IMG/VR virus record: IMGVR_UViG_3300033978_000437
Direction: 5' to 3' (one strand)
Source: a virus
DNA length: 64,000 bases
Shown: positions 43,969 through 61,462 of the stretch, piece by piece
Numbering within the stretch: the stretch's first letter is position 1
Layout of the letters: every line of letters begins with the position of its first letter
The notes under the pieces: generated by a model
Told to the model about the DNA's origin: nothing
What the model saw: only the letters and a program-made list of their open reading frames with translations
Databases searched by the model: none
Made by a program: the position numbers and the translations under genes

Positions 43969-44916
43969 TTAGGTAAAGTCAACCCTAGCAAGACCAGAGG
44001 TATGACCAATGGTGCCACCTAAGGTTTCATAAGCAAAGAATTCGATAAAATACGCTTCACGACGGATGTACATCGTGGTGTCTTCTATCAGGTAGCTCTT
44101 GCCGATAAATTTAGGGTCAGCGAAATGATACATCGTACCAGTTGGGACAAGTCCCTTCTTAATAGTGATGATCCACTGAACACCCATAAATTCGCTGTAG
44201 GTCCAACCATTACGCATAATCTCTTCACTAAGATCGCCACCCATATCATTACGATTGAGTTTGGCAACTTCTTTGATAGTGATGTTATTAAGCAAAACGG
44301 AATGAACTTCAAGATTAGAAGGAGTGCCTGGCATAATCTTAAAGCTGTCCCACAGGTTGCTGCGGGTTACCCCACCGCTAAGCTGTTTGTACTGGATTAC
44401 TCCAGAAGTAGGAACAGTTGTTCCTGCGCCAACAAGAGCAGTGTTGACCGCAGAAATAAATTTGCCATCTTCTTCCGCTAACATATCCTTAATGGCATTA
44501 TCGGATAGGATTTGTCTGATATCCATATGCCATGTGCGAAGTTCATCCACATCCTTCGTGAATTTAGGGGTCACGATGCGGTCAAAGGTAACTCGGTACC
44601 TATCACCACGGATGTACAAGTTGGTAGGAAGCGTGGCAAAAGGAATTGAGATTGCTGCTGGAGAATCTGGTTCCTTGTCCACGATCTTTACAGGCTTGTC
44701 CGTGTCAACTTGACGATCAAGATCGTCGTTGCTGAGTGGGATTGGTGGCATAATACGTCTGTAGAAGCCATCTTCACGCATCTTAGTCCTAGTGAAGTCG
44801 TTGACAGCGTCAACAGCTTGCTTTTCTAGGTTAGAGTCACGGGAAGCCAATTTTTCAAAAATTGTCTGACTAAGAAGTTTGCTTTCTTCTTGAGTCATGA
44901 TACTAGAATTAGCCAT
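43969..44916 (-). CDS. Major capsid protein (HK97-type fold inferred)
   Basis: 315 aa; strong SD AAGGAGG; FTRTKMREDGFYRRIMPP, RVTFDRIVTPKFTKDVDEL, DNAIKDMLAEEDGKF, IEFFAYETLGGTIG; follows scaffold and decoration genes. Confidence 0.8.
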   Translation of the reverse strand: MANSSIMTQEESKLLSQTIFEKLASRDSNLEKQAVDAVNDFTRTKMREDGFYRRIMPPIPLSNDDLDRQVDTDKPVKIVDKEPDSPAAISIPFATLPTNLYIRGDRYRVTFDRIVTPKFTKDVDELRTWHMDIRQILSDNAIKDMLAEEDGKFISAVNTALVGAGTTVPTSGVIQYKQLSGGVTRSNLWDSFKIMPGTPSNLEVHSVLLNNITIKEVAKLNRNDMGGDLSEEIMRNGWTYSEFMGVQWIITIKKGLVPTGTMYHFADPKFIGKSYLIEDTTMYIRREAYFIEFFAYETLGGTIGHTSGLARVDFT

Positions 44917-45572: not shown

Positions 45573-46013
45573 TTAAGAACGAGGGGCGTCCATAACCGCC
45601 CAAATTGCCACATCCGATGCCTTCTTTTCAGAAGTACGTCGGCCTACATACGGATCATTTAAACTGGTACGGCCTTTGAGACCGGGCTTAATGCCTGCCT
45701 CTCTGTCCGAAACAGCTTGTCCAAGGTCAGAGCCAGTCTTCTCAGCAGCAGTTTTAAACTGATACATTTTGTCAACGGCATTGACCAACAAGTCTAAACT
45801 TTGGGCATGATTGCTCAACATCGCAACAGCTGCCTGTTTTTGATGGGGAGCAACACAACCAGTCCGCTCTAACTGAGCAAGAACAGCAGACTGCTTATCG
45901 GCAGCTTGCTTATCTTGCACATAGCGTGCTTTTGCGTGCTTCAATAATCGATCATTTAATGTCGAGGTGACAGCAATGTATTCGATCATCTGAGCTGCTA
46001 ACTTTGTGTTCAC
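45573..46013 (-). CDS. Head-associated helical protein
   Basis: GTG start with SD GGAGG; several KxA motifs (TKLAA, DKQAA, QKQAA, FKTAA, KKAS). Confidence 0.6.
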   Translation of the reverse strand: MNTKLAAQMIEYIAVTSTLNDRLLKHAKARYVQDKQAADKQSAVLAQLERTGCVAPHQKQAAVAMLSNHAQSLDLLVNAVDKMYQFKTAAEKTGSDLGQAVSDREAGIKPGLKGRTSLNDPYVGRRTSEKKASDVAIWAVMDAPRS

Positions 46014-46049
46014 TGTATAAATCCTCCAAGAATAGATTTTAAAGAAAGA

Positions 46050-47255
46050 TTAACGGCGGGAACGTTCTAGAACTTCTTGAATGTAATCCCGCACATTTTT
46101 ATTAGCTGCACCTTTTTTAGCTGCTGCTTGTTTATAAGCGGCTTCAACTTCCATGTTAGGGGCAGCATTAGCCATCTCTGGAGGAGCACCACCGCCCATG
46201 GAAGGATCCATAGGAGAAGCGCCACCTTCACCACCTTCAGAACCTTGGCCGGCCATGGCCGCTTCTAGTTCTTCGGGAGAAATGCCAAGTTGGTCTAAAA
46301 CAGCTGCTAACTGCTCTACATCGTCGCCACCTTCGCCCTCTGGAGCTGCGCCACCGCCCATGGCACCAGCCATGGCAGCTTCGTCACCACCACTCGCAGG
46401 AGTCATACCACCAGCAGAAGGATCCATCTCTGGAGGCATTTCTTCGCCTTCAGCTTGCTTACGCAATTCATTTTGATAACTGTGTAAGTAAACTGCGGCT
46501 TTGTCTGCATCGTCATTAGCAGTCTTGATGATTTCGCTCAAAGTAGAATACACAAGGGAGTCAGCAGCTCGTTTATCGAACTGACCACTCAATAATCCTG
46601 CAAGTTCCCAGCCAGCTTGGCCAGCAAGATCTACTGCACCTTTTTCTTCCATTATGTCAGATGCAGAGTCAGAATCTGAATCAGATTTGCGGGCTTCTTC
46701 GTCATCATCGTGGAATTCTGCGTTCTTTGTCAAAGAGACAAGAACACGGTTTCCAAGATCATTAGAAAGCTTGTGCAATTCTGCAGTGGACATAGATGCA
46801 TATTTATTGCCATCTAATTCACTATTGTCAGTGCTAGCAGGATGTGAAGTTTCCACATCGTCTTTTTCAGCTTTTACTGAAGAGGTTTCCACTGAAGGAT
46901 CCTCTCCGGTTGGTTGCTTATTCGTGCCAATCTGCAGCTGATCATCTGCAGCAGATCCAGTAGGATCCTTTTCAGCAGCCCACTTATTTGCAGAAGCTCG
47001 CTTCTTAGCTGCAGCTTTTTTAGCATTTTCAACAGATGCTGGGCCTTGGTCGGCCTTTACATCTGCTGTGTTTTCTGCAGAACGTGCACCTTCTGATGCA
47101 TCTTCTGTAGAATCATCCACGTCTTTCACAGGGTGGGTGGTTTCTCCGCCAATGCTGCCTGCTTCTGTATTAGCCGCTGCATTCTTTTCGGAATAACCAA
47201 CCGCCTTTAGAAAGCGATCAATAGAGTCTATTTGATTCTTAACTGTTGTCGCCAT
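46050..47255 (-). CDS. Putative capsid scaffolding protein
   Basis: Highly acidic, low-complexity, many KxA motifs, C-terminal basic helix VRDYIQEVLERSRR; located between protease and capsid genes. Confidence 0.65.
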   Translation of the reverse strand: MATTVKNQIDSIDRFLKAVGYSEKNAAANTEAGSIGGETTHPVKDVDDSTEDASEGARSAENTADVKADQGPASVENAKKAAAKKRASANKWAAEKDPTGSAADDQLQIGTNKQPTGEDPSVETSSVKAEKDDVETSHPASTDNSELDGNKYASMSTAELHKLSNDLGNRVLVSLTKNAEFHDDDEEARKSDSDSDSASDIMEEKGAVDLAGQAGWELAGLLSGQFDKRAADSLVYSTLSEIIKTANDDADKAAVYLHSYQNELRKQAEGEEMPPEMDPSAGGMTPASGGDEAAMAGAMGGGAAPEGEGGDDVEQLAAVLDQLGISPEELEAAMAGQGSEGGEGGASPMDPSMGGGAPPEMANAAPNMEVEAAYKQAAAKKGAANKNVRDYIQEVLERSRR

Positions 47256-47296
47256 TTAAAAATACTCCTTACAAAACGGCACCGAGTTTCGATGAC

Positions 47297-48775
47297 CTAG
47301 TTAAATATTCGATTCTGACGCAGACTTAACTTAACTGTTGAGGTAAAGTCATTGTCTGTTGCAGCTAGCCTCCACAATCCTGCTAGCTTATACATTGCAT
47401 ATTCTTTGGCTAGGCTTTCACCTTCCAAATTACATGCAGCTGCTTTTTGACGAATCACAGGGGCAGCCTGCCCCCGGATACAACTCAAGAAACTTCGGTC
47501 TTCAACCGCAGATCGATGAAGCGAATGACTCGCAGTCAAAGTAGCGGCGAATGCCTTAGAACTTTCATTAGCTGTCTTGTCAATAAATGAACATGCACCA
47601 CGTTCAATCTCAATAGGCAAAGATTCATCCGCAGCCATTCTTGTATATATTTCTGGAAGTATTAAAGCTGCAGATTTCATATGCTCTTCGTGTCCTGCCA
47701 ATCGTGCATAATCAAATAATGTTAAAAATATTTTATTATCTGCCAACGCAGCTAACTGTTTGCTGCATTGCTCCGAACCTAGTTTCGCCAGCCTTTCTAT
47801 AGGGAAAGCTGAGGTTGCTACCGCTCGATAAGTACCAGCATCTCCCATCTCAGCAAATTTTTCAAGAGCAGCTAGCCCATATCCTAATTTAACTTGAGCA
47901 GTATTTTTCTCTGACCATAAACCATTTCTTCCCGATTGATAAAGAATTACATCCAGCGGAGCGGTAGAGGCAGAAGCCAACTTAATATAATCTTGCAATT
48001 CAAATATGCCGGAATCTGCTGCAGCTTTTGTTAAGTAATCCGCCCTAGCCCCATAAGCAATACGATCCGCAGGCCGAAATACTCGGCTAATATCGAACCA
48101 TACAGGGTTAGGATTGTCTACATGTAGGTGATGCACATCGCTGCCTACTTTTACTAATCTAGTAAGATTATCCTTACAGCCACCTGCTGCACACTTTTCT
48201 CTTGTGCAGTATTCCTCCCTAGTCTTAGCTGCGTGTTTGCAGAAGGAACAAACATCATGAGGAACACGGCAAGCCATGCTCACTGGAATGTCATCTCCCT
48301 TTGCAATCTTTTCTAATTCTGTGTCTGCAACAAAACCACCATTTCGATCTGCTGCAGATTTACTAGCATTCAACGCACAAAGCAACTCCACTCGACGCAT
48401 ATCTTCGTTGTAGGCAGAAGCTTTAACAACCCCATAGAAAGGGTCGCCTCGTTCTGCTTTGTTTTTATGATTGCGGAAGAACTTGGCAAATTTAACAAAG
48501 GTAGCATGATGATCTCGGCAAGTGGCTTCTTTAAAACCATCACCATTGCGGTTAGGGCCATAAGCTTCACTAGCACCTAATGCAATCAAATGCACAGGAA
48601 CCTCATCTTTGGCAAACTTGACATTGTCTAACTGAGGTAAGAAGGTATGACTAGCCCGCTTTAAAAAATCTTGTCGATCATTACCAATCAACCCACGACT
48701 GCTCACCTTGATCGGTGAAACGATTTGTTCTGCAAAATCCCAACCAGACGGAGAAACAAATTTAATCAGTGCCAT
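47297..48775 (-). CDS. Putative prohead (capsid maturation) protease
   Basis: NRNGDGF, FFRNHKNK (candidate His), RRVELL, PVSMAC (candidate Ser) followed by a CSFC...C...C cluster; upstream of scaffold and capsid genes. Confidence 0.65.
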   Translation of the reverse strand: MALIKFVSPSGWDFAEQIVSPIKVSSRGLIGNDRQDFLKRASHTFLPQLDNVKFAKDEVPVHLIALGASEAYGPNRNGDGFKEATCRDHHATFVKFAKFFRNHKNKAERGDPFYGVVKASAYNEDMRRVELLCALNASKSAADRNGGFVADTELEKIAKGDDIPVSMACRVPHDVCSFCKHAAKTREEYCTREKCAAGGCKDNLTRLVKVGSDVHHLHVDNPNPVWFDISRVFRPADRIAYGARADYLTKAAADSGIFELQDYIKLASASTAPLDVILYQSGRNGLWSEKNTAQVKLGYGLAALEKFAEMGDAGTYRAVATSAFPIERLAKLGSEQCSKQLAALADNKIFLTLFDYARLAGHEEHMKSAALILPEIYTRMAADESLPIEIERGACSFIDKTANESSKAFAATLTASHSLHRSAVEDRSFLSCIRGQAAPVIRQKAAACNLEGESLAKEYAMYKLAGLWRLAATDNDFTSTVKLSLRQNRIFN

Positions 48776-48787
48776 AGTTATTCTCCA

Positions 48788-49909
48788 TTACTGCATTGTG
48801 TTAGCTGTTTGATCGGGCATGACTAGTGCATTTAATACATCTTTAGCACTGTTGCGATTTGCATCACCTTGTCTGTAGTGGTTACGTATGATTCCGCTTC
48901 CAACGCCCCAACCACCAGCTAACAATCCTAGTAAACCTAATTTCCCAGGTCGTAGCTTCCCGAGTGCATTACGCATCCCCGTTACTTTAGAGGCTTCTAT
49001 AATTTCTTTAGCTGCTGCATCGCCCATGGCCGATTGTAATTTAGTGTTCAACAAACCTGGAGCTACACCTGGAATTAAACTTTTAGGCAACATTGCCCTA
49101 ATCTCATCAACGGTTAAACTAGCTGGTTTTCCCGTACTCGGAAACACCTTCTGAAATCGAGCAGTGTCTATTAGAGGGGGACCGGAAGTGCCAGCGGCAG
49201 ACCCCTTAGGAGGCGGTCCTAAAGTTTGCAATCTTGCACTTATGTTTTCTGCAGCTGCGGTAGGATCATATACTCCCTTAGCGGCTACATAAGCCCCAGC
49301 CCCACCAGCTGCCGCTGTGTTTAGCCCATGTGCAGTGTAGTTGACAATTTCTGGCATACTACTTTCTGCGGTGTTTTGTAATTCGTTTATTTCATTTAAT
49401 TGTTCAGCTGGTGACTTGCTTTTAATGTGAGCGGCTATTTGTCTGGATTTAGAAGCATCAGGAGGAAGGGCAGAAGTTAGCCCAGGCTTTTTTTCAAAGT
49501 GTAAAGCTTTGCCTAGTGCATCCGGATTAAATGCCAACCCAAGACCACCACCTAGCGCACCACCAGCCAACCCACCTTGCAATGCTTTCCAGCCTGCACC
49601 TTCTTCGCCATTCAATAAAGCAGAGGCTCCGCCTGCACCTGCCCCAAGACCTGCTCCAGCTAGCCCAGATAGCAGAACATTACGAGTAGAGTCGTCCATT
49701 CCGCCAAATCCGGATTTTAAAGAATCAAGCAATCCAGATTCTGCAAGCTTTTCTATGTAGTCAGCACCGATATCTCTTAAAGGAAAAGAAGTAGCCATAG
49801 CCTCTTTGGACATACGCTGAATATGCCCAGAGTCTAAAGCTTGCTTCCTAGCAGCCAATAGCTGCAAACCTTGGGAATAAGTAATGTTACTTAGAGTTAT
49901 CGGTGTCAT
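48788..49909 (-). CDS. Putative internal head/ejection protein with glycine-zipper helices
   Basis: GLAGAGLGAGAGG, GGLAGGALGGGLG, GLLGLLAGGWGVGSG; IEKLAES motif. Confidence 0.5.
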   Translation of the reverse strand: MTPITLSNITYSQGLQLLAARKQALDSGHIQRMSKEAMATSFPLRDIGADYIEKLAESGLLDSLKSGFGGMDDSTRNVLLSGLAGAGLGAGAGGASALLNGEEGAGWKALQGGLAGGALGGGLGLAFNPDALGKALHFEKKPGLTSALPPDASKSRQIAAHIKSKSPAEQLNEINELQNTAESSMPEIVNYTAHGLNTAAAGGAGAYVAAKGVYDPTAAAENISARLQTLGPPPKGSAAGTSGPPLIDTARFQKVFPSTGKPASLTVDEIRAMLPKSLIPGVAPGLLNTKLQSAMGDAAAKEIIEASKVTGMRNALGKLRPGKLGLLGLLAGGWGVGSGIIRNHYRQGDANRNSAKDVLNALVMPDQTANTMQ

Positions 49910-51266
49910 TTTTTGCCTTTACTCTTTGTGCTTGGTTGGAAATATTAGAGTCACTTTGAGTATCTTTAAGACTTCCTTCCATTTTAAGCAATTCAGCAAC
50001 TTCGAAAGGTTCTGTGTTGCCTATCATACGCTTGTTCAACAATGGCCCAATACCCCCAGACTGATCGGCTAGACGAGGAGACAGCTGAACCATTTCATTA
50101 TATTTACTTAGCACATCCTCAGGATCATACTGACTTAAAGGGTTATCAGGATCACTCATTAACTGAGTAAGTACTGTCTGTGCCCTAATCTTACGCAGTT
50201 CATTTACATGCTCAGGGCTATCTAACTTATTTATTTGGCGTTCCACATCTTTGTCATGCTCGCCACCTACGCCCTCTGCTAGATTGCGTGCTAACCCAAA
50301 CCCAGCTCCGCTAGCAAACATACCTGAGGCCGTACCCCCTTGTTTTTCTCCCATAATATTAGAATGGAGAGGCAAACAAGGTTCGCTATTAGAGTACGGC
50401 TGGTAAAAAGAAGCTGTAAGCTCTTTGGCTTCTGCTAATTTAATTTCGGCTTTTTGCAAAGCTTCTGAAGCTTTGTAATAGTCTTTAGCTTGTTTTATCG
50501 TGGCATCGATTAAGGTGTAGGGTTCTTTTTTCCAATCTGCTTCTTGTTGAAACCCTGCCCAACTAGCTTTGTGATCTGATGCTCTTTTTTCTTTCGTAAA
50601 CTGCCCTGCAACATGGTCCATAAGCGACTTGCCTACAGCACCACGACAGACAGAAACTGCGTGTTCTACTTGTGCTAAGGGCAAGCGATCTTGAGCAAAC
50701 TTACGGAAGTAGCTTTCCAACAAATGAAGCTTAAGGTTTAGCCTATCTTCATTTGCTGACTTTTCTCGTCTAGCTTCTTCAGCCATTCGACGACAGTAGT
50801 CAAAGTTTGAATAGCTTTTTGCAATTTTATTGGTGGCATGTTCTGCTGCTGCTAGCGGGTGAGGTTCCACCTCTGCTGCTGATTTCTCTAATGTACTTAA
50901 ATCCATGCTAAGCAATTGCTGTCTTGCTTGCTCTTCATACGAAGCAAAAGTAGGAGGAAAAAAAGATACTGAAGCAACTTTCTCTACCTTTTGCCCCCAG
51001 ATCTGATCATGAACAGTAGCGTAGTCCGCTAGACTAAAACTAGCGAGCTTATCCAGCACGGAATCATTAGCGTTCCATTGTGCTAGCTGTCTCCCAGTAT
51101 TAAAAGCGTTGCAAGCTGCTTTTAAAAAGCCTGGGGAAAACTGCATATGTTTAGCTACCTTGTGCATGGCATCATTAGGCAGCATGTTTTGGTTATCCAC
51201 CAAATCCACGGCCATTTTAACGCCATCCAGTAGCTGCTGTTCGTCTGACTTACTTAGTGCTTGCAT
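49887..51266 (-). CDS. Putative internal head protein (helical)
   Basis: Start reassigned to ATG 51266 (SD GGAGGAG); DKLAS, EKVAS, EKSAA and EKRAS motifs. Confidence 0.55.
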   Translation of the reverse strand: MQALSKSDEQQLLDGVKMAVDLVDNQNMLPNDAMHKVAKHMQFSPGFLKAACNAFNTGRQLAQWNANDSVLDKLASFSLADYATVHDQIWGQKVEKVASVSFFPPTFASYEEQARQQLLSMDLSTLEKSAAEVEPHPLAAAEHATNKIAKSYSNFDYCRRMAEEARREKSANEDRLNLKLHLLESYFRKFAQDRLPLAQVEHAVSVCRGAVGKSLMDHVAGQFTKEKRASDHKASWAGFQQEADWKKEPYTLIDATIKQAKDYYKASEALQKAEIKLAEAKELTASFYQPYSNSEPCLPLHSNIMGEKQGGTASGMFASGAGFGLARNLAEGVGGEHDKDVERQINKLDSPEHVNELRKIRAQTVLTQLMSDPDNPLSQYDPEDVLSKYNEMVQLSPRLADQSGGIGPLLNKRMIGNTEPFEVAELLKMEGSLKDTQSDSNISNQAQRVKAKNDTDNSK

Positions 51267-52272
51267 TTTTTTCTGGCTCCTCCCGTTTGTAAACATCAAC
51301 ACCTGTATCGTGTTCCAATACGGGTAAATTAGTTCCAGCTGCGATCAAAATAGCTTCTTCTGAATTCAACTCAACTGGTCCCATATCATACTTACCAACA
51401 GGGGTTCCTTGATATAACTGTTCCCCGTTTTTCCCAATACTCCAAGGAATTTCTAACATCATTGCACTGACATTCTTCTCGAACTCATTGTGCCTTACTT
51501 CTTGGCTCTTATCCGATCTTTGCAATTCCATCAGCCTTACATGTGTGTTGAGCAATTCCATCACATTGTACTTGTTCACTTCAAACTGACCCGCTGCTTG
51601 TGCACTGCGGCGCTGTACTTGAAGAGTGAGCTGGCTGTTAAAGAACTCCGATAAATTATCTGTATTTAATACATGATTATTACGACGAAATCCACTAATC
51701 ATTACATCGCACACCAAGGGTCCGCCAAAATATGCAAAGAATTTTAAAGGTAAGTCTAACTGTGATCGCATAAGCCCAGCAGCGATAATTGGCTGAGATG
51801 CTTCATCACTGTCATGTGGTGCCTGCTCCACAAATCGGTCGGATGCGGGCAGAAGCACATTCTTTACAATCCAATCATGATGAGACAAGAAATCAGATAC
51901 ATTAAAGAATAATCGCTCATACCATTGGATAGTTTCAGGTATAGTTTTGCAATCATTAGCTATGCTCTCGATAGATGCCCCAGCTAGCAGTCTAGCCTCG
52001 ATCATCAATGTCAACTCAGGTTCAACAGCTAATCGGTCATACAAACTATAGGCAAAGTATAAGCCAGGGTTTTCATAGAGAAGCTTCTCTCTATGCCCTT
52101 CACCTTTGTTCCAGAAAAACAAGAACTTCTTATATTCTTGAATCCACTGATCATCAAATCGTTTACATCGCTCGGGAGGAACACTTCGAAGCATACGAAG
52201 TACCCGCTCATGCCTCCAGTAGGGGCGAAGAAATGGGTCAGCGAGGCGTACGTCCTTGTAACTTTTCAACAC
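51250..52272 (-). CDS. Helix-turn-helix-containing protein (possible DNA-binding or packaging protein)
   Basis: EARLLAGASIESIANDCKTIPETIQWYERLFF resembles an HTH. Confidence 0.4.
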   Translation of the reverse strand: MLKSYKDVRLADPFLRPYWRHERVLRMLRSVPPERCKRFDDQWIQEYKKFLFFWNKGEGHREKLLYENPGLYFAYSLYDRLAVEPELTLMIEARLLAGASIESIANDCKTIPETIQWYERLFFNVSDFLSHHDWIVKNVLLPASDRFVEQAPHDSDEASQPIIAAGLMRSQLDLPLKFFAYFGGPLVCDVMISGFRRNNHVLNTDNLSEFFNSQLTLQVQRRSAQAAGQFEVNKYNVMELLNTHVRLMELQRSDKSQEVRHNEFEKNVSAMMLEIPWSIGKNGEQLYQGTPVGKYDMGPVELNSEEAILIAAGTNLPVLEHDTGVDVYKREEPEKNASTK

Positions 52273-53100: not shown

Positions 53101-55632
53101 TTAGTTCCTTGAAACTTCGTCTAAGTTAATGTCACCTTTATCAAATGATGACTCAATAGTCTTCTCTTTCAAGAAGAGTGTAATATCACCAAGAGATTCA
53201 AAGGCATTCCGTAAACTATCTTCTAATTCTGGAAGATCACTTTTACCATATCTATCTTCAAATTCTTCTTGATGCCAGTAGAAATTCATCAACAACCGGC
53301 CTAGCGAATCCAAGGCTGCCATTAAGTCGCCCAAGTGGCGGTCTACCAGTGAATCTTGTCTTACTGTTTTTAACATACCTGCCATCATTGAAACATCAAA
53401 TACTTCTTTCTGACCATCTTTGCCAGCAGTTTGTGCTGATTGCAGATTTTGTTGAAAATCTTTAGCTTCAAAGTTCTGCCAGTTGTCCCACTTGGATCTA
53501 TTTGTATTCTTACCACTCATTGAGGGTATAGGTGAATTCTTTTCCGTAGGATAGCGAGTCAAGGCAGATGTGCTTGGCCCAAATGTCTCGCTACCACGAT
53601 CCCCAGAAGTGTCCGTATCAAGGGGGAACGAAGGACCTCCAGCTAACACACTAGTATTAGGTGCAGCTTGTTTCTCTGTGCCATAGCCAGCAGCATACAG
53701 CACACGATAAATTGCATGCCCTGACTTCTCTGCTTTTTGCAGCATATCCATAGCAACTTTTTCACGAAGTCCATGTGTGTCTACCAACCGGCATAATGCT
53801 GCTTTTTTGCTTAATTGAACGGCACCGATTACAGAGTCTAAGTACACATCGGTGCCGTTATTGAATATTTTGAGCCTAGCTGTCTTTTCAACTAATAAGC
53901 GTTTGATGTCAGATAAGCCACCTAACTTAATAGGATTTGATTCATCGTCAAAAGGTGAACAGCCACACCCACCAAAGATGCTGGAAGAAGAACCATCCGA
54001 CAATTTGATGAACTTGAAAGAAGCTGGCACACGAAGTTGCCCGGAGACAGGTCTAAGTCTAAGGCCGCTCTTATCTTCTTTGCCAATGATTAGAGTAGCC
54101 CCATAATTACTATTACTATTGAAAGAACTTATTAGATTAGCACCTGCTGCCATGCCCCGCCTAGAAGGAGCATACCGATCTTGTATCTTAGGCATCAGCT
54201 CGCTACGTGAAGCTGAATAATCTTTATTCGTGCGAAAATCTACTTTGTACTCACCATCACCCATGTCCGTAGTTACACGGAAAGGCGCAGTAGCCGAACG
54301 ACTGTAGTTTATAGCGATATATTCTGCATCCTCGTCTAAGTCTGTGTCAGAGGATAAGCCGTCAAACCAATCTTTCCATTCGTCTTTGTCCGAAACTTGT
54401 GTAGCAAAAACTGATGTGCTGTCGGCATTTAACCAGCTTTTATTAGCTCCATCCTTTTTATCTATCCGTACAACTGTGGTCATGGACTCTGCTCCACGAC
54501 TGCTGATACCATTCAAGACCACCAGCATTTTGCTAAATTCACCAGAGCTTTCTAAAACAGAATATAATTCAGTTTCAGAGGGGTTAGTGAGGCTAATATC
54601 ATTTTCAGTGGTGTAAAGCTTACTTACTTCTGTATCTTCTCTACGATCTTTGATGACTACTTTGCCTTGCAGCAATTTCTCTCGGTCTGAAGTGCCCAAA
54701 TCAGATTTGTTCGTAACCACCGATGCGGACATATAGATCTCTAACTTACCTTCTTTAATGTGATCGGTAATAGGCTGGGGCTGGGAGAGCGTACCCAGCA
54801 AGGTAGTAGGCACAAGTGTGACGGTAGTAGGCGTAGGAAGAATGCTGCTAGCCTGCTTGATTGTGTTACTTCGAAGTTCTTTAGCCCAGCGGGAAAAACA
54901 ATCAACACCATAAAAGTCACTAGTAGCTTTTTTAATGGTGGGATAGCGTTCTGCTAAGTCGTAAGCTGCTTCAAGTAATGCCAAGCTTTTAGGGAGCACT
55001 TGGTTAAAATCCAGATTTGAAGCTGTCTTTGCTAGCGCCGCTTCAAATGGCACTTGGACAACTGCCTTTTGATCCAACTTGCGATTACCTGCGCCACGAT
55101 ACAAGGATCCGGCAAATTTTACTTTGAAGGCGGCAAGCATAGGAAGCACAGGTGCTAGCCAATGAGAATCACTTGCGTGCTTGTTGCCTTGGGGCGAAAT
55201 AGACAAAGAGTTAATGTCAGGGGCAATGCCTCCGAGCTCTTGTAATTTGCCTACAGAAGGTTCTCCTAAAATATGAGGTTTCCGGCTCATAAGATAGTTG
55301 ATCCAATTTTCTTTCATTGGAACAAATGAATCATTATTTTTTATGTAGAGTAGCTCGTGTCCTTTTAAATCACCATTTAAGAAAAAGACAGGAGCATACA
55401 ACCACTGCTTACCGATTTGAAAGCCAAAAACACCAATAGCTTTAGTATTGTCTTCATTACGATCAATTAGCTGGAAGCCCAACATATAATCAAGAAGTCT
55501 TGGTGCCTTATCTTTTAGATAAGCATAGGCTAAGCTAGAGAAAGCTTGTTCAAATTCTGTTTCTCCTCCCTTACCGCCGATACTAGCATTCTTCAATAAA
55601 TTATTTTTTCTAGACATTTTCATGAGCCACAT
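53101..55632 (-). CDS. Large head-associated protein of unknown function
   Basis: 843 aa (start may be 55623); KNAS, KHAS, KTAS, KQAS and EKQAA motifs. Confidence 0.6.
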   Translation of the reverse strand: MWLMKMSRKNNLLKNASIGGKGGETEFEQAFSSLAYAYLKDKAPRLLDYMLGFQLIDRNEDNTKAIGVFGFQIGKQWLYAPVFFLNGDLKGHELLYIKNNDSFVPMKENWINYLMSRKPHILGEPSVGKLQELGGIAPDINSLSISPQGNKHASDSHWLAPVLPMLAAFKVKFAGSLYRGAGNRKLDQKAVVQVPFEAALAKTASNLDFNQVLPKSLALLEAAYDLAERYPTIKKATSDFYGVDCFSRWAKELRSNTIKQASSILPTPTTVTLVPTTLLGTLSQPQPITDHIKEGKLEIYMSASVVTNKSDLGTSDREKLLQGKVVIKDRREDTEVSKLYTTENDISLTNPSETELYSVLESSGEFSKMLVVLNGISSRGAESMTTVVRIDKKDGANKSWLNADSTSVFATQVSDKDEWKDWFDGLSSDTDLDEDAEYIAINYSRSATAPFRVTTDMGDGEYKVDFRTNKDYSASRSELMPKIQDRYAPSRRGMAAGANLISSFNSNSNYGATLIIGKEDKSGLRLRPVSGQLRVPASFKFIKLSDGSSSSIFGGCGCSPFDDESNPIKLGGLSDIKRLLVEKTARLKIFNNGTDVYLDSVIGAVQLSKKAALCRLVDTHGLREKVAMDMLQKAEKSGHAIYRVLYAAGYGTEKQAAPNTSVLAGGPSFPLDTDTSGDRGSETFGPSTSALTRYPTEKNSPIPSMSGKNTNRSKWDNWQNFEAKDFQQNLQSAQTAGKDGQKEVFDVSMMAGMLKTVRQDSLVDRHLGDLMAALDSLGRLLMNFYWHQEEFEDRYGKSDLPELEDSLRNAFESLGDITLFLKEKTIESSFDKGDINLDEVSRN

Positions 55633-55648
55633 TCCTCGATTGTATTAC

Positions 55649-55867
55649 TTACTGATTATTAGAGTGCATCTGCTGTCTAAGTAAAGAAAGGCGCGCATTT
55701 ACAATGGCATTACCCAAGGCTGCTGCCACCTTTTCAACATCCGTTTCTTCTTCCTCTAGTGGCGTTTTCTTTTTCTTTTTCTTCATGGTAGTTGGAGGCA
55801 ACAAGTATGCTGCAGCATATTTTATGTCAAGCCCACCAAGCAATGGTTTATTCCACATAATATTCAC
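55649..55867 (-). CDS. Small charged protein (K6 then E4 blocks)
   Basis: 72 aa; SD AGGTGA; IKYAA and EKVAA motifs. Confidence 0.5.
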   Translation of the reverse strand: MNIMWNKPLLGGLDIKYAAAYLLPPTTMKKKKKKTPLEEEETDVEKVAAALGNAIVNARLSLLRQQMHSNNQ

Positions 55868-55945: not shown

Positions 55946-58900
55946 TCATTTAGAACTTTCTGCCCATCCTCGATACTCCGCTAGATCTTCATTGTTAGTT
56001 CTCAATTGGGATTCTAGTTTCGCCCTTTGTTCTGGCGGAAGAGAAGTATCTCGAAGTTGTGCTTCAACTGCCACAATGTTTTCTTTAAGCCCATTAACTC
56101 GATTACGCATGTCCGTGCTAAACAAGCCCTTACCTGAAGAACCACCCTCTCGCTCGTAAGTACCCATCATCTGCTTACGCTGTGCCTGTCTATTTAATAA
56201 CTGCTCCTGCCTTGCTTGCCCCCCTGCGTCTAGCTCCCCCTTAGCTTTTAACTCTGCTAGTTCTGTGTCCGCAGCTGTAACCGAATTTTGCATGGCATCA
56301 CGGAATTTGTGTCCGCCACTACCAAACCAATTTTGTTGGCCTAGTCTCCAGTTAGCTGTTTCATCCGCTGTATTTCCTTGTCTAGTTTTAGCGTCTTGTA
56401 TTTGTGCTTTTAAATCTGCAGTACCTTCTAAATTCTGCGGTTTAGTCAAAGCTAATTGTGCTTCTAGACCTTTTTGCTTTTCTACTTCCATTGCATTAAC
56501 TTGCGTTTTGTCTGCCACCGAGGCACGGGAACGAGCATCAGTTCCAGTTACTTTGTCACGAATAGCTTCACCGGCCATCCCAGCCTGCTCCCCAAGCATC
56601 CCCGCTGTCTGAGTTGCACCCCCAGCTATTAGCTGCGCATTAGCCACTGGGTTAAGAGCTTGTGCAGGGGCTTGCCATGCTGTATGCAGCCCATCTTTAA
56701 ACGAAAGAATGTCTCTCCAGTTTTGTGCTGCATCATTGGTTGTATTATCCCAACCTTTATCTACTATGTCTGAACCAACGCTATAAGCTTCCATACCTGC
56801 ACCAAGGAATGGCAGAGCTTTTCCTACTCCTTTAGTAAGTGCTGAAAATCCTTTACCTACATAACCTGCAGGTGCTTTAGGTAATGGGGGTGGACCTTTA
56901 GGCAATGGCGGGGGGCTACCAGGCACAGGTGGTGGAGTTGTAGGAAAGGGGGGCGGGCTTCCGGGTATAGGAGGCGGAGTGGTAGGAAATGCAGGTGGTT
57001 TAGGTGCCATAATTGTATTTTTTATACCATTGTAGCCAATTGGAGCAGCATACCCAAATGCTGTACCTGTATCTGGACCCGAGCGGGCTGCTGGTTTTTC
57101 CTCTGTAGGCGAGTCTACTGTAGGAGCAGATGCTGTAGGGGCACTAGGCTGGGAACCGCCACCAAACATATTAAGCATGCTATTCCACATCCCACCTTGG
57201 TTTGCAGCTGGGGTAGGACTGCTGCTAGGTGCATTAGATTGCGGGCTTTGGTTTAAATTTTGTTGTCCTTGTCCGCTGTTGTTTTGGGCACCACCCCCAA
57301 ACATATTAAGCATATTACCCCACAACCCATTATTATTACTTGTAGCTAATCCTTGTGAGGGTCTCGAATTAAATAGCTGTTGAAAATTACCACCACCAGC
57401 CATCCCACCTAACATCATAAGCCCCATTAAAGGATTTTGATTTAACATCTGCCCAGCTTGCCCTGCAAAATTAGAATTATTTTGCATCAAATAATTAAAG
57501 TGATTAAATTGATCCGAATTTGAGGTTGGGGTAGGTGTAGATGCGGGCGGAGGGGCTAAAGCAGAAGTGCCCTGATCGCCCTTTGCGTCAGTATCTTTGT
57601 ATGTGTCATACAGTGATGGGGCGGGGGCAGGAGTAGGTGCAGGCGCAGGAGTAGGTGCAGGGGTAGGTGGCAGAGCTGGCATGATATTTGGGCTAAGGTC
57701 AGCTGCTGGGGTATAAGGATGAGGTTCAGTATTATTACGAGGGGCAACCCCGCCTTCCATATGTTCTGGGGAATTTGACCCATTCCTTGGGGCTGGTCCG
57801 CCCATATATTCTGTAGCAGGGGTATTGGGTATCGGTTTAGAGACGGCAGGAGGCTTAGAAACGGAAGGTGGTTTAGAAACATCTGGAACAGAGTCCATCG
57901 CAAGCTTAGTTTGGCCAGGGGTAAAACGACCGCCAAAAAAAGGAGCGTTGCTAGGTGCTATAGGCTTTAATGCAGGAGGAGTAGGAGTTGCAGGTAGCTC
58001 ATAGCTAGGTTTAGGTTTTATTACCGCATGGTCTTTACCTTCTCCAAAATCAAGACCCATTGCTAAACTAGGAACAAAGCTTGTACCTCGTTCTTCGCTG
58101 ATAGCCCCATGAGTCACAGAATCTAAGAAACTTTTCTTTAAACCAGACCCATACATTTGAGTCATCCAGTCAGGATCATGCTGCATTTGATACAAACCAC
58201 GAACCATGTGGGGCTCAAATGGCGGAGGGTTCTTGTGTACTGGAATTTCATTGATTTCAAAATCTTGAAAATTCTTAAGCATAGAAGGTCGAATTTTAGT
58301 ACCAATAGTGTAATGCAGTATAGGTCGTTCAAGATATTGACCTAGTGCTCGCTTAGGAGTTAATCGCTGGTGGTCTTCTCGTGGTTTGTAAGTGTGCTCA
58401 AGCGTAGAGTAAGGAACAATATCGTCAGGTACATGGTCATCTGTTTCTTCTGTCAGCCTTACATGGTTAATAAGACCTCGAGCTAATACCTCTATGTTTC
58501 GTCTGTGCCCGAACATTCCGCTGTCACCCATTGCCTTACGAAACTCATTAACAAAATAGCGTCTTCCTTCGCCTACCCCTTTGTGCTCTGTAATAGTAGC
58601 AGGGTTAGGAATTCCTGAGCTAATTACATCCCCAGCCTCTACCTCGTCTCCTTTTTTTACTTTAAGATCAAACCCAGCCCCTACATAATGTTGTTTATCT
58701 CCAATGGTTACATAGCTACCACCCGCAGGAGCTTCCTCAATACGCTGTACTACTCCATCTTTTAGTGCATGCGCTGCCCCGCCTTGCATCTTCTTTGGAA
58801 CTTGCACTAATTGGTTTAAATACTGGAAACCGCTGACAGCTTTTTCTTGACCTGCCACTCCACCCGAATGTTTTGCAGATAGCTGACCTTGGCTAATCGG

Positions 58901-59878
58901 TTCACTTAAAGCATGTGCAGCCTGTAACCCAACTTGCTCGCCAAGCCCTGGAAGCTTTCCAGTTTCCCGAATACCTACATCCCTAGAATAAACACCACCA
59001 TCGGGAGATCCACCTACGAGGGCAGATCGTACTAAGATTTTAGATGTGCCAAGCCGTTTTAAATGATTCAGTATTTTCGGAGTAAGGGGAGTGTTTCGAG
59101 CATAAGGGCCAACAGCCCGAGCTAGCAGTGCTCCTTCGTTATCTGCGTCATCAGTGTCTACTACCAATCCTCGAATAGGTGCATCTTCTGCCTCTTCGGC
59201 ATCTTCTCCGGTTACCACTAATCTATGGCTAGTTTGATTAAGTTGTTTGTTAAAAAATCCGGCATCTTGTGTGGCAAACTTAGTTGCCATAATACCTTTA
59301 CGTGCCCCATAGGTTCCGGCCCAATACTCGGCAGGGGACAACCCTTCGCTGTAGCTACGCAGTACAGGGATTGGAATCACATCATCCCGCTGATCCGAAT
59401 ACAGCATGTCTGAACCTAACAAACTAGTTAAATTCATAGACTTACCGCGCGTACCTGACATTACCTGCATCCCAAGCGGATTCTTATTTAGCAATGCCTC
59501 TGCAAGTACTTGTTTTTGTTGTTCTGGACTTTCTTTACCAACGGCACGAATAATCTGCTCATTTCGCTGCTGATCTGTCAAAGATTCGTCAGATAGAATG
59601 TTGGTAAGTGTTGCTCTAACTTTCTGGCGAGAAGCTAATGCCGCTTTGCTTACTTGCAAATGGCGAAGACCAAAAGACATGCCACCCTGCTCTTGAGCCA
59701 TGCTTTGGCCAAGACCACTTAGCTTAAAAGAAATGTCTTTATAACGCTCTGGGTGTTGTTGTGCCACTTGCTGTAATAAAGATTGCAGCCCTTTTTTATC
59801 TAGCACACGATGAGAGTCTCTCAACTCTTCCGGAAGGACATCATTAATTAACAGTTGTCCAACGGTCGTATTCAACAT
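55946..59878 (-). CDS. rpoC: RNA polymerase beta' C-terminal half (~610 aa) fused to a ~700 aa low-complexity/helical extension
   Basis: NTTVG; SGTRG; bridge helix EYWAGTYGARKGIMATKFATQDAGFFNKQL; trigger loop GEQVGLQAAHALSEPISQGQLSAKHSGG; HRRNIEVLARGL; then Pro-rich, Q/N/G/M-rich and amphipathic segments. Confidence 0.92.
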   Translation of the reverse strand: MLNTTVGQLLINDVLPEELRDSHRVLDKKGLQSLLQQVAQQHPERYKDISFKLSGLGQSMAQEQGGMSFGLRHLQVSKAALASRQKVRATLTNILSDESLTDQQRNEQIIRAVGKESPEQQKQVLAEALLNKNPLGMQVMSGTRGKSMNLTSLLGSDMLYSDQRDDVIPIPVLRSYSEGLSPAEYWAGTYGARKGIMATKFATQDAGFFNKQLNQTSHRLVVTGEDAEEAEDAPIRGLVVDTDDADNEGALLARAVGPYARNTPLTPKILNHLKRLGTSKILVRSALVGGSPDGGVYSRDVGIRETGKLPGLGEQVGLQAAHALSEPISQGQLSAKHSGGVAGQEKAVSGFQYLNQLVQVPKKMQGGAAHALKDGVVQRIEEAPAGGSYVTIGDKQHYVGAGFDLKVKKGDEVEAGDVISSGIPNPATITEHKGVGEGRRYFVNEFRKAMGDSGMFGHRRNIEVLARGLINHVRLTEETDDHVPDDIVPYSTLEHTYKPREDHQRLTPKRALGQYLERPILHYTIGTKIRPSMLKNFQDFEINEIPVHKNPPPFEPHMVRGLYQMQHDPDWMTQMYGSGLKKSFLDSVTHGAISEERGTSFVPSLAMGLDFGEGKDHAVIKPKPSYELPATPTPPALKPIAPSNAPFFGGRFTPGQTKLAMDSVPDVSKPPSVSKPPAVSKPIPNTPATEYMGGPAPRNGSNSPEHMEGGVAPRNNTEPHPYTPAADLSPNIMPALPPTPAPTPAPAPTPAPAPSLYDTYKDTDAKGDQGTSALAPPPASTPTPTSNSDQFNHFNYLMQNNSNFAGQAGQMLNQNPLMGLMMLGGMAGGGNFQQLFNSRPSQGLATSNNNGLWGNMLNMFGGGAQNNSGQGQQNLNQSPQSNAPSSSPTPAANQGGMWNSMLNMFGGGSQPSAPTASAPTVDSPTEEKPAARSGPDTGTAFGYAAPIGYNGIKNTIMAPKPPAFPTTPPPIPGSPPPFPTTPPPVPGSPPPLPKGPPPLPKAPAGYVGKGFSALTKGVGKALPFLGAGMEAYSVGSDIVDKGWDNTTNDAAQNWRDILSFKDGLHTAWQAPAQALNPVANAQLIAGGATQTAGMLGEQAGMAGEAIRDKVTGTDARSRASVADKTQVNAMEVEKQKGLEAQLALTKPQNLEGTADLKAQIQDAKTRQGNTADETANWRLGQQNWFGSGGHKFRDAMQNSVTAADTELAELKAKGELDAGGQARQEQLLNRQAQRKQMMGTYEREGGSSGKGLFSTDMRNRVNGLKENIVAVEAQLRDTSLPPEQRAKLESQLRTNNEDLAEYRGWAESSK

Positions 59879-59905: not shown

Positions 59906-59923
59906 TTAAAATCTGGATTTTAG
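59906..59923. promoter_or_regulatory. Near-perfect palindrome TTAAAATCTGGATTTTAG upstream of the beta'-C gene
   Basis: 16 of 18 positions identical to 35841-35858; overlaps the stop codon of 59920..60489. Confidence 0.45.
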
Positions 59924-60489
59924 TCGTCACTATCGTCACCACCAAAGGCGGCTTCGATATCTTTAAGAGTAATTTCTTCACTCTTGCCACGCTTTGCTTT
60001 CTTACGAGATGGCTTAGGTTCATCTTGTATAATAGCAGCCGCCTCTGGCATACTCTCAACAACTTTGACTACTTCTTCTTTAATAGCTTCAGGAGCTAGT
60101 ATAGAAAAAGATATGGAGTCTGCCTGATCACGGGTTAATTCTCCCCGTCCAACCGACATGTCTACAACGATTTGCAGCTGTGTAATTATATATTCAGTGG
60201 CCTTCACTGTGATAAGCGTGGCTCCGTTTTCAAATTCAGCTTGTATGGCTGCGAGCCCATAGCAATTATCAAGTATTTCTAACTCTACTTCTTTTTTTGG
60301 AGGAAGTTGAAGTTTAGCAATAAGAGGGGCATCTTCTAATATAGGTAGTGACATCTCGGCATAATACTTATTATTAGAAGAGTTTAAGTTAGAAGATTGT
60401 TGATAAGTAGGAGCAGGGATAGCTGTAAGGCTAACCTCTGGTTTTCGGTCTCGATAGTAGCAGTCAGAAGATCGTAAAGAATCGTCCAT
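59920..60489 (-). CDS. Hypothetical acidic protein between the RNAP genes
   Basis: 189 aa ORF, co-oriented, 1-nt gap to its neighbour. Confidence 0.6.
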   Translation of the reverse strand: MDDSLRSSDCYYRDRKPEVSLTAIPAPTYQQSSNLNSSNNKYYAEMSLPILEDAPLIAKLQLPPKKEVELEILDNCYGLAAIQAEFENGATLITVKATEYIITQLQIVVDMSVGRGELTRDQADSISFSILAPEAIKEEVVKVVESMPEAAAIIQDEPKPSRKKAKRGKSEEITLKDIEAAFGGDDSDD

Positions 60490-60490
60490 A

Positions 60491-60715
60491 TTACACCTGT
60501 ATCTTAGTAGAAATAACGGTTTCGTTAATACCTAGTTTACGCAAATTATCATTGAAACTGGCATCTTCACAATGAGACACCATAACGCTGGAAGAACCAC
60601 CAAAAAGTGCAGCTACGCTAACTGGAGTACCATCTAGCATACGCACTACAACCTGAGAAGCAGGTATCCTAAGTGGAGGTTTACCAATACTTTCAAGTAC
60701 CTCCACGATAAACAT
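60491..60715 (-). CDS. Small beta-rich hypothetical protein between the RNAP genes
   Basis: 74 aa, co-oriented. Confidence 0.6.
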   Translation of the reverse strand: MFIVEVLESIGKPPLRIPASQVVVRMLDGTPVSVAALFGGSSSVMVSHCEDASFNDNLRKLGINETVISTKIQV

Positions 60716-60727
60716 ATAATAAATCCC

Positions 60728-61462
60728 TTACTTGTTATTATTACGCATTAAAAGTGCAGTAGCCAACGCTGCTACACTGCCACTTTTAACAGAAGTATGT
60801 TGAGGGTAATAATCCGCAGGCAAGCTGAAAGCTGTACCACTTTCCCACGCCTCCGCTGACTTCATAGGAGCAATAGGTTGAATCTGCCCAAGACCACCAC
60901 CCGACTTACCATCGGGAGTAGCTGCCGCTAATCCTGGCCCACCTTGTGCAATCTGGTTTAAGTCTTCAGGTGTTACCACCATATCAGACACAGGTACATG
61001 GATGCCAAGTGCATCAATAATCTTAGCAAGCATTTTCTTAATCTGTACGATTTCGACATTGATGTCAATTTTAGGTTTAAGACCGGGGCCTGCGCCTTGT
61101 GGTTGCCCGCCACCATTAGCTGACATTGCTTGTTGCACTGCCTGTTGAACCATCGGCATTATTGCTGCCATGGGGTCCATAGGGGGAGGAGGTGGAGCAC
61201 CGCCACCCATAGAAGGATCCATAGGAGGAGGTGGGGCACCACCGCCCATAGAAGGATCCATAGGAGGAGCACCGCCCATTGAAGGGTCAGGAGGTGGAGC
61301 ACCACCGCCCATAGAAGGATCCATAGGAGGAGCACCGCCAGAAGGCATAGGAGCCCCCATAGCAGGATCGCCTGCCGCAACAAATGCATATTTAGATAGG
61401 TGTCGTTTTCCTACATGTTGTCGGGCCATCTTTAACAATTCCAAATTAACTGCCATAAACAT
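60728..61462 (-). CDS. Pro/Met/Gly-rich protein with (PPMDPSMGGG)n repeats
   Basis: SD AAGGAG; about 5 imperfect repeats at 61170-61370; SKYAF motif precedes the repeats. Confidence 0.7.
   Translation of the reverse strand: MFMAVNLELLKMARQHVGKRHLSKYAFVAAGDPAMGAPMPSGGAPPMDPSMGGGAPPPDPSMGGAPPMDPSMGGGAPPPPMDPSMGGGAPPPPPMDPMAAIMPMVQQAVQQAMSANGGGQPQGAGPGLKPKIDINVEIVQIKKMLAKIIDALGIHVPVSDMVVTPEDLNQIAQGGPGLAAATPDGKSGGGLGQIQPIAPMKSAEAWESGTAFSLPADYYPQHTSVKSGSVAALATALLMRNNNK

Follow-up and report, generated by a model that had tools for sequence, protein, structure and literature searches.

A second, undescribed protein joined in frame to the β′ C-terminal chain of a phage RNA polymerase

What is a core RNA polymerase (RNAP) subunit of a large phage doing with a second protein's length of low-complexity and helical sequence behind it? 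The question is raised by IMG/VR virus record IMGVR_UViG_3300033978_000437, of which a window of 64,000 nucleotides was analyzed (bases 114690-178689 of the 178,753-bp viral contig, in minus-strand view; estimated completeness 83%). The window holds an open reading frame (ORF) of 1310 residues that begins as the C-terminal half of a multisubunit RNAP β′ subunit (β′-C) and runs on in frame, well past the end of polymerase homology, into what we here call the tail. A first-pass annotation, made from the sequence alone, had described this tail as a possible cleavable packaging or ejection tag or, alternatively, as a condensate-forming extension loosely analogous to the C-terminal domain (CTD) of RNA polymerase II (Pol II). 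We show here that the ORF consists of two adjacent genes of the phage transcription/head module that have been joined, namely the β′-C half of the sole multisubunit RNAP and an undescribed accessory protein.

Two genes joined in one frame

The N-terminal part of the ORF is a polymerase chain. Pfam RNA_pol_Rpb1_5 (PF04998), the Rpb1 domain 5 and trigger-loop region of the β′ C-terminal half of multisubunit RNAPs, matches residues 179-364 (1.4e-18; 67.7 bits against a curated cut-off of 28.5), PHROG RNAP families span residues 65-495, and all Pfam and PHROG matches are confined to the first ~500 residues. The closest cultured relatives are Salmonella phage Arash and Vibrio phage D181, with 26-29% identity in β′-C. 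Their β′-C chains have 606 and 609 residues, and similarity to the window protein stops at residue ~614-616. Because these chains end at the position aligned with residue ~616, the ~650-690 additional residues that follow in the same frame are extra. The partner chain is encoded upstream (61529 to beyond the window edge; a 1488-residue open frame in the full record) and contains Rpb2_6, then Rpb1_1 and Rpb1_2, in one frame; it is thus β fused to β′-N. Only one RNAP gene set was found in the 179-kb record.

55946-59878, minus strand: whole ORF, β′-C plus fused tail protein, 1310 residues; a single open frame, kept fused in relatives
58031-59878, minus strand: β′-C polymerase core, residues 1-616, with the PF04998 and PHROG RNAP matches; Arash and D181 β′-C end here; dN/dS as given below

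A long extension of this kind could be produced by an error that hides a stop codon near residues 610-660, one of the conditions under which the first-pass annotation would have withdrawn its proposal. The window is part of a metagenome-derived contig of 83% estimated completeness, and forms in which the two parts are separate do occur in nature, both of which would suit such an artefact. The same uninterrupted frame is present, however, in three IMG/VR relatives (L004, L005 and L006; 1239, 1206 and 1060 residues) that are 57-83% identical to the window protein along its whole length, and in more than 20 further fused forms of 1202-1342 residues from metagenome contigs and two protein databases, 14 of them additional database proteins. 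L004, L005 and L006 derive from different samples, as do over 15 other fused ORFs, and the junction, FFGGRFTPGQTK[LI]AM[DE], is identical or near-identical in the independent assemblies P0035, P0048 and P0050. Moreover, the split layout calls for a stop and a change of frame together. Every insertion or deletion in the low-complexity part is in frame, and the ratio of nonsynonymous to synonymous substitution rates (dN/dS), computed against L004 and L005, stays below 0.3 through the tail:

Polymerase core: 0.036
Low-complexity part: 0.22-0.29
Middle segment: 0.24-0.27
Last 200 residues: 0.09-0.17

The independent fused relatives, the in-frame length differences and these ratios exclude a hidden stop or frameshift, and we consider it next to impossible that the tail is unjoined in the actual phage. 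The tail is translated and under selection.

The seam and the split relatives

Whether relatives encode the tail as a separate gene was a check proposed by the first-pass annotation, and the answer is that some do. An exhaustive profile search with the last 300 residues of the ORF as query yielded 31 representative proteins, in all of which the C-terminal domain stands at the C terminus; some are β′-C fusions, and others are proteins of 616-748 residues that begin with "MD..". At seven loci the genes are split: a β′-C of 658-673 residues ending in "..MFFGGKF.VG..K" is followed by a stop, a spacer of 2-4 nt and the ATG of a tail gene, the product of which (616-813 residues, with the "MD.." start) matches the window tail end to end. 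The window sequence at this place reads FFGGRFTPGQT-K659-L-A660-M661-D662. Since the stop, spacer and ATG of the split relatives align there, TKLA and the next ATG mark the exact boundary of two gene products. The TKLA at residues 657-660, with an ATG directly behind it and no Shine-Dalgarno sequence, had been pointed out before as a K-x-A site near the junction; all of these elements are where they had been placed, and the seam falls on the site itself.

57896-57910, minus strand: seam, T657-K-L-A660 then M661 (TKLA at 57899-57910); in split relatives stop, 2-4 nt spacer and ATG lie here
57902-58030, minus strand: clade-specific C-terminal extension of β′-C, residues 617-659, which stays on β′-C in split phages
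57992-58009, minus strand: conserved PSYELP motif within this extension
57929-57940, minus strand: conserved FFGG[RK]F motif within this extension

Fused and split loci share one gene order: β-β′N, three small genes, β′-C, tail, a ~840-residue protein and then proteins of ~215, 340 and ~480 residues. It is unlikely that the split forms are assembly frameshifts, given seven independent contigs with the same stop-spacer-ATG arrangement. In a β′-C tree the four split forms with a full-length β′-C make up one clade (support 98/97) nested among fused forms, and a single event therefore accounts for the distribution of the two states. The 2-4 nt spacer suggests that β′-C and tail gene are translationally coupled in the split phages.

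Two ways of producing separate or joined products at the seam were considered and rejected. Internal initiation at M661 is contradicted by a Met that is kept in the closest relatives only, and no Shine-Dalgarno-like purine run precedes this ATG. Programmed frameshifting to join the split genes finds no slippery heptamer before the stop on inspection. A consensus scan just downstream of the ORF detected neither a sigma-70-type promoter nor an intrinsic terminator.

The distribution of fused and split forms bears on an account in which the tail protein, of ordinary head-internal or ejection type, happens to adjoin β′-C, and in which its fusion is a neutral accident of co-expressed late genes with no tie to the polymerase. 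The gene does lie at the border of the RNAP genes and the head module, one event covers all fused and split forms, and a proteolytic cut at the seam, considered below, would render the fusion harmless. Yet the tail gene is known only beside this type of β′-C, as all of the 31 representatives with informative context are fused to it or lie directly behind it. The PSYELP/FFGG extension, which belongs to β′-C, tracks the tail and is absent from the tail-less Arash and D181, and the fused state survives at deep divergence, down to ~25-30% identity over the last ~350 residues of the tail. A neutral accident is thus, in our judgment, decidedly unlikely.

Some further observations concern the polymerase genes. 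The three small genes between β-β′N and β′-C (59920-61462, minus strand; 244, 74 and 189 residues) are conserved in order and size in L007 and L008, two split relatives, and have no Pfam or PHROG family matches; they could encode additional polymerase subunits. There is no cysteine in the 1310-residue protein or in nearly all fused and free members of the family. Some relatives carry Hint-type inteins in β′-C (P0034 and P0028, the former apparently with two and with a Pfam match to Hom_end_hint). Among the more distant β′-C relatives are Ralstonia phage RP13 and Cobetia phage Carin-5, which figure in papers on phages with T-hypermodified DNA.

The tail protein

Based on alignment of its members, the tail family has four parts: a rapidly evolving, Pro/Ala/Gln/Asn-rich and probably disordered low-complexity region, an N-I-M-P peptide inside it, a Gly/Ala-rich middle segment and a helical bundle of ~200 residues.

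56849-57898, minus strand: low-complexity region, residues 661-1010 (P 20%, G 11%, A 10%, S 9%, N 9%, charged 9%), indel-rich
57677-57688, minus strand: N-I-M-P short linear motif, residues 731-734, from aligned tails
57002-57016, minus strand: degenerate second copy, T-I-M-A-P, read from the sequence
57155-57517, minus strand: lineage-specific Q/N/G/M-rich block, residues 788-908 (N 18%, G 17%, Q 12%, M 9%)
57290-57322 and 57155-57187, minus strand: W-x-x-MLNMFGGG, two copies, at residues 853 and 898
56906-56989, minus strand: FPTTPPPxPGSPPP, two tandem units, at residues 964 and 978 (repeat finding; 42-nt period, 2.2 copies)
56549-56848, minus strand: middle segment, residues 1011-1110, a moderately hydrophobic Gly/Ala-rich helix and then GWD...LHT...NPV motifs in the alignment
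55949-56548, minus strand: C-terminal helical bundle, residues 1111-1310, found in the 31 profile relatives; pLDDT and dN/dS as given in the text and list

Residues 661-1010 are probably disordered, judging by composition. Across the family this region is 270-500 residues long, rich in P, A, S/T, Q/N and G and poor in charges, and both its sequence and its length vary freely. The N-I-M-P peptide, in the form [N/S/T]-N-I-M-P, is present in 16 of the 19 aligned tails and in all 14 additional fused proteins, often twice, at 20-45 residues from the N terminus of free proteins and 43-117 residues past FFGG in fused ones. A constant peptide of this sort in a variable background has the signature of a predicted docking or recognition peptide. 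It occurs a single time in the 56,484-residue predicted proteome of the phage, which led us to reject it as a proteome-wide protease site.

The last ~200 residues were predicted as long helices in the two AlphaFold models that were made (predicted local distance difference test, pLDDT, 83-97), consistent with the amphipathic or coiled-coil helices proposed earlier. An aromatic/glycine loop of the bundle contains the invariant D-E-T-x-x-W-x-L-G-x-Q...G-G-H-K-F-R-D-A, and the conserved end motif is Y-R-x-W-A. The middle segment was predicted poorly, at pLDDT <50 even with a 30-sequence alignment; it persists in lineages without the helical end domain. Two fused lineages, L006 (6001-9183) and P0023, stop after the middle segment and lack the ~200-residue helical domain, and no separate copy of that domain was found in the 94%-complete L006 genome. 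In the relative P0021 an InPase domain of the polyvalent-protein type (PF18823, 5e-56) is inserted in the tail, just past the N-I-M-P and K-L-A motifs.

Searches for homologues of the tail outside this family gave no informative match. Pfam, PHROG and PADLOC scans of the window tail yielded nothing above noise, a tblastn search of 50,697 phage records with the C-terminal domain as query no real match, a profile search through the genomes of Arash and D181, both complete, no tail homologue, and blastp against the ORFs of the phage itself no paralogue. Foldseek (PDB, BFVD) and VIA-align (48,161 chains) retrieved only generic helical hairpins, the best PDB matches having E >= 0.1 in Foldseek and Z <= 7.7 across 59-93 residues in VIA. 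Cluster look-up gave 'hypothetical protein' as the only name, and a literature search found no paper describing the family. The tail is therefore an undescribed protein family without annotation and without Pfam, PHROG or fold match. A transmembrane or pore-forming ejection protein was rejected as a candidate, as hydropathy remains below transmembrane grade (maximum Kyte-Doolittle 19-residue mean 0.94 in the window tail and 0.74-1.58 over 19 homologues). Likewise rejected was a conserved basic, nucleic-acid-binding surface, because the net charge of the helical domain ranges from -7 to +6 among homologues.

These properties weigh on the view that the tail remains attached and, as a flexible and self-associating low-complexity extension, gathers the polymerase in a condensate. 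Like the Pol II CTD, it is a low-complexity, Pro-rich and probably disordered C-terminal extension of a largest-subunit homologue. The MFGGG motif recurs in the 121-residue block, which is 30% Q+N, 17% G and 9% M, the region is low in charge and high in Pro and Gly, and residues 961-1110, the stretch that was folded, have pLDDT <50. The Q/N/G/M block that the first-pass annotation called prion-like exists, as do the duplicated W-x-x-MLNMFGGG motif and the FPTTPPP-x-PGSPPP repeats, but only the window, L004 and L005 have the block, with different low-complexity sequence in its place elsewhere in the family. In contrast to the Pol II CTD, the tail has no heptad array: Tandem Repeats Finder (TRF) detected 1.9-2.4-copy repeats only. 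Its sequence is not conserved, it ends in a folded domain, and the covalent link is dispensable, the tail being unattached to the polymerase throughout a sister clade. The parts that are best conserved are a four-residue peptide and the folded helical domain rather than a composition. We accordingly abandon the CTD analogy, and a condensate function appears very unlikely.

A different role close to the polymerase would be that of a transcription factor, for example, a promoter-specificity or initiation subunit comparable to gp68 of the phiKZ nonvirion RNAP, tethered to β′-C or co-expressed with it and not a packaging or ejection device. Strict adjacency to β′-C, the short spacer with its suggestion of coupled translation and the repeated fusion with β′-C would agree with this role. 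Jumbo-phage RNAPs employ an unrelated fifth subunit (PMC7598289), and no convincing sigma factor was found in the record, its sole Sigma70_r2 match being of 17 bits, below the cut-off, in a 51-residue frame with a stop. On the other hand, PDB searches with the tail revealed no similarity in fold or sequence to sigma, phiKZ gp68 or AR9 gp226, the charge swings of the helical domain leave no conserved basic surface, and two lineages are missing this domain altogether. A 350-residue disordered spacer would be unusual in an initiation factor, and Arash and D181 share the RNAP architecture yet have no homologue. We therefore doubt that the tail is a transcription factor.

Head proteins, a candidate cut and delivery of the polymerase

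The ORF lies on the same strand as the head genes and directly upstream of them. Its 843-residue neighbor (53101-55632, minus strand) is orthologous to Arash virion protein gp218 and to a 622-residue protein of D181, with similarity at the N and C termini, and a weak PHROG match to a major head protein is present at 43969-44916. Between the tail gene and the gene for the 843-residue protein is a small gene (55649-55867, minus strand) for a protein of ~70 residues with a Lys run, which is conserved in amino-acid sequence in L004, L005 and L006; a conserved DNA block (GTG.TTG..TTGCG...GGCTAAACT) precedes it just upstream.

The K-x-A triplet at the seam is over-represented in proteins of the head cluster (z 3.2-5.7), as compared with 300 composition-preserving shuffles per protein:

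401-residue ORF (46050-47255): 14 observed, 4.2 expected
492-residue ORF (47297-48775): 15 observed, 4.7 expected
471-residue ORF: 12 observed, 4.4 expected
843-residue ORF: 11 observed, 4.7 expected
146-residue ORF: 6 observed, 2.0 expected

It is also enriched in a 392-residue ORF elsewhere in the genome (17880-19058), with z up to 6.7 overall. The 146-, 401-, 492- and 471-residue ORFs (45573-51302, minus strand) and the 392-residue ORF, in which K-x-A is 3-4 times over-represented, have no Pfam or PHROG matches. The site consensus is hydrophobic-E-K-x-A-[A/S]-D. In six orthologues of the 843-residue protein (56-96% identity), 8 of the 11 sites keep K and A invariant while x varies, and 6 of the 11 are within the first 260 residues. 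Portal and head proteins of giant phages have long, multiply cut N-terminal propeptides (PMC10052503), which the K-x-A-rich N terminus of the 843-residue protein resembles; by this analogy it may be a portal-like protein with such a propeptide.

At the seam, K-x-A-x-[D/E] follows FFGG in all 14 further fused proteins and at most loci, in variants such as KLAMD, KIAME, KFAAD, KLAEE, KLAVD, KRAVE, KQAEE and KTAAP, so that the module boundary carries the motif shared with other head proteins in nearly all fused forms. The earlier K-x-A suggestion thereby gains statistical support. A predicted cut after the Ala would leave a tail protein beginning with x-[D/E].., like the free "MD.." proteins, and a β′-C two residues longer than the free ones. 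Judging from these sequences, a cut after K659-L-A660 would yield the same pair of proteins as in the split phages.

On balance we lean towards a reading in which the two joined genes have cooperating products that are packaged. The polymerase and the tail protein would act jointly in equal amounts; the polymerase would be made late, along with the head proteins, and then enter the capsid. Where the genes are fused, the head protease would cut after K659-L-A660 and give rise to a β′-C ending in ..GQTKLA and a tail protein starting with MD.., the same two that split phages make directly. The tail protein would then either help the polymerase to be packaged or ejected, or accompany it as co-injected cargo. 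Packaging in the virion is suggested here by analogy: in mass spectrometry of Arash virions the β-β′N chain was the most-detected protein and β′-C the fifth (gp206 and gp216 among the top five; PMC10585845). The InPase domain in the P0021 tail is of a type known from phage proteins predicted to be packaged and injected, where it was suggested to clear pyrophosphate for early transcription (Iyer et al., PMC5512222).

Several points weigh against this reading. The β′-C of Arash has no tail and is only ~26% identical, and ribonucleotide reductases and further enzymes are among the 116 proteins listed for the Arash virion (PMC10585845); with such nonstructural enzymes on the list, carry-over is possible. 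No protease match to Pfam or PHROG was obtained in the head cluster, the β′-C-tail protein as a whole is not enriched in K-x-A (5 observed, 6.9 expected), and the seam of two fused lineages reads K-L-G or K-M-S. The pieces removed by protease in phiKZ-like phages are nearly all N-terminal propeptides (PMC10052503), not C-terminal modules of 650 residues. The two lineages without a helical domain imply that this domain is not essential to the core role. Finally, an approximately unbiased (AU) test of the fused forms as one clade gave p 0.05 and does not fix the direction, fusion or fission, of the event.

A more specific version is that the tail is a dedicated delivery module, made as a K-x-A-cut fusion or from a coupled gene, in which N-I-M-P docking peptides on a disordered thread, together with the helical end, would load RNAP into the prohead and lead it unfolded through the tail channel. 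We regard this as possible, if rather unlikely. To our knowledge, delivery of this kind has not been described for any virion RNAP of the multisubunit type.

Comparison with known systems places the locus among several precedents. The virion RNAPs of phiKZ, SPN3US and AR9 are likewise bacterial-type β/β′ homologues in unusual pieces that are encoded with late or structural genes, and those of phiKZ-like phages reside inside the head, from which they are presumably ejected so as to transcribe early genes (PMC7598289; PMC10052503). In phiKZ-like phages a protease that recognizes three residues matures the head proteins; its motif is A/S/G-x-E, and the candidate here is K-x-A. By contrast, in the present phage β is fused to β′-N, β′-C is a separate chain, there is a single RNAP set, and packaging is inferred; none of the phiKZ-type subunits has been described with a C-terminal module of ~650 disordered-plus-helical residues. 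In T4, where internal proteins and Alt are processed, and in giant-phage heads, a short protease motif also marks head-targeted proteins, much as K-x-A is enriched, conserved and located at the seam here, but the motif differs, and the known cuts remove N-terminal targeting peptides or propeptides, whereas the candidate cut here would part two large functional proteins.

Coliphage N4 gp50 is a capsid-carried polymerase with a noncatalytic terminal region needed for encapsidation (PMC5512222). Unlike the system described here, it is single-subunit and T7-like and is packaged unprocessed, and the tail resembles it neither in sequence nor in fold. Phages and conjugative elements encode polyvalent proteins (Iyer et al. 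2017, PMC5512222), which are also long and multi-module and predicted to be packaged and delivered with the DNA; the P0021 tail has their InPase. They are recognized by two or more effector or enzyme domains in one packaged polypeptide, whereas the window tail has none that is recognized, the InPase being in P0021 only, and its partner is a core polymerase subunit rather than a string of conflict effectors. N4 thus offers a precedent for a capsid-carried polymerase with a noncatalytic delivery or encapsidation part, and phiKZ-like phages offer one for a virion multisubunit RNAP; the tail family itself is undescribed.

The genes for bacterial β and β′ have themselves been split and fused naturally, as in cyanobacterial rpoC1/rpoC2 and the Helicobacter rpoB-rpoC fusion. 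In these events, as here, adjacent polymerase genes were joined or separated at a domain boundary with function kept, but they involve polymerase parts only, in contrast to the joining of a nonpolymerase protein to β′-C.

For phages that carry an RNAP, phiKZ-like and others, it has yet to be explained how a multisubunit enzyme of considerably more than 200 kDa enters a capsid and then travels through the phage tail. The clade described here gives a natural handle on it, an unannotated family that is fused to β′-C or encoded 2-4 nt downstream of it and that has a conserved four-residue peptide amid disorder. The fused and split pairs define cut points for constructs and allow a clean test of K-x-A as a protease code. 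Should the tail be unrelated to delivery, it would still be a new polymerase-associated factor of the little-studied large phages related to Arash, D181, RP13 and Carin-5.

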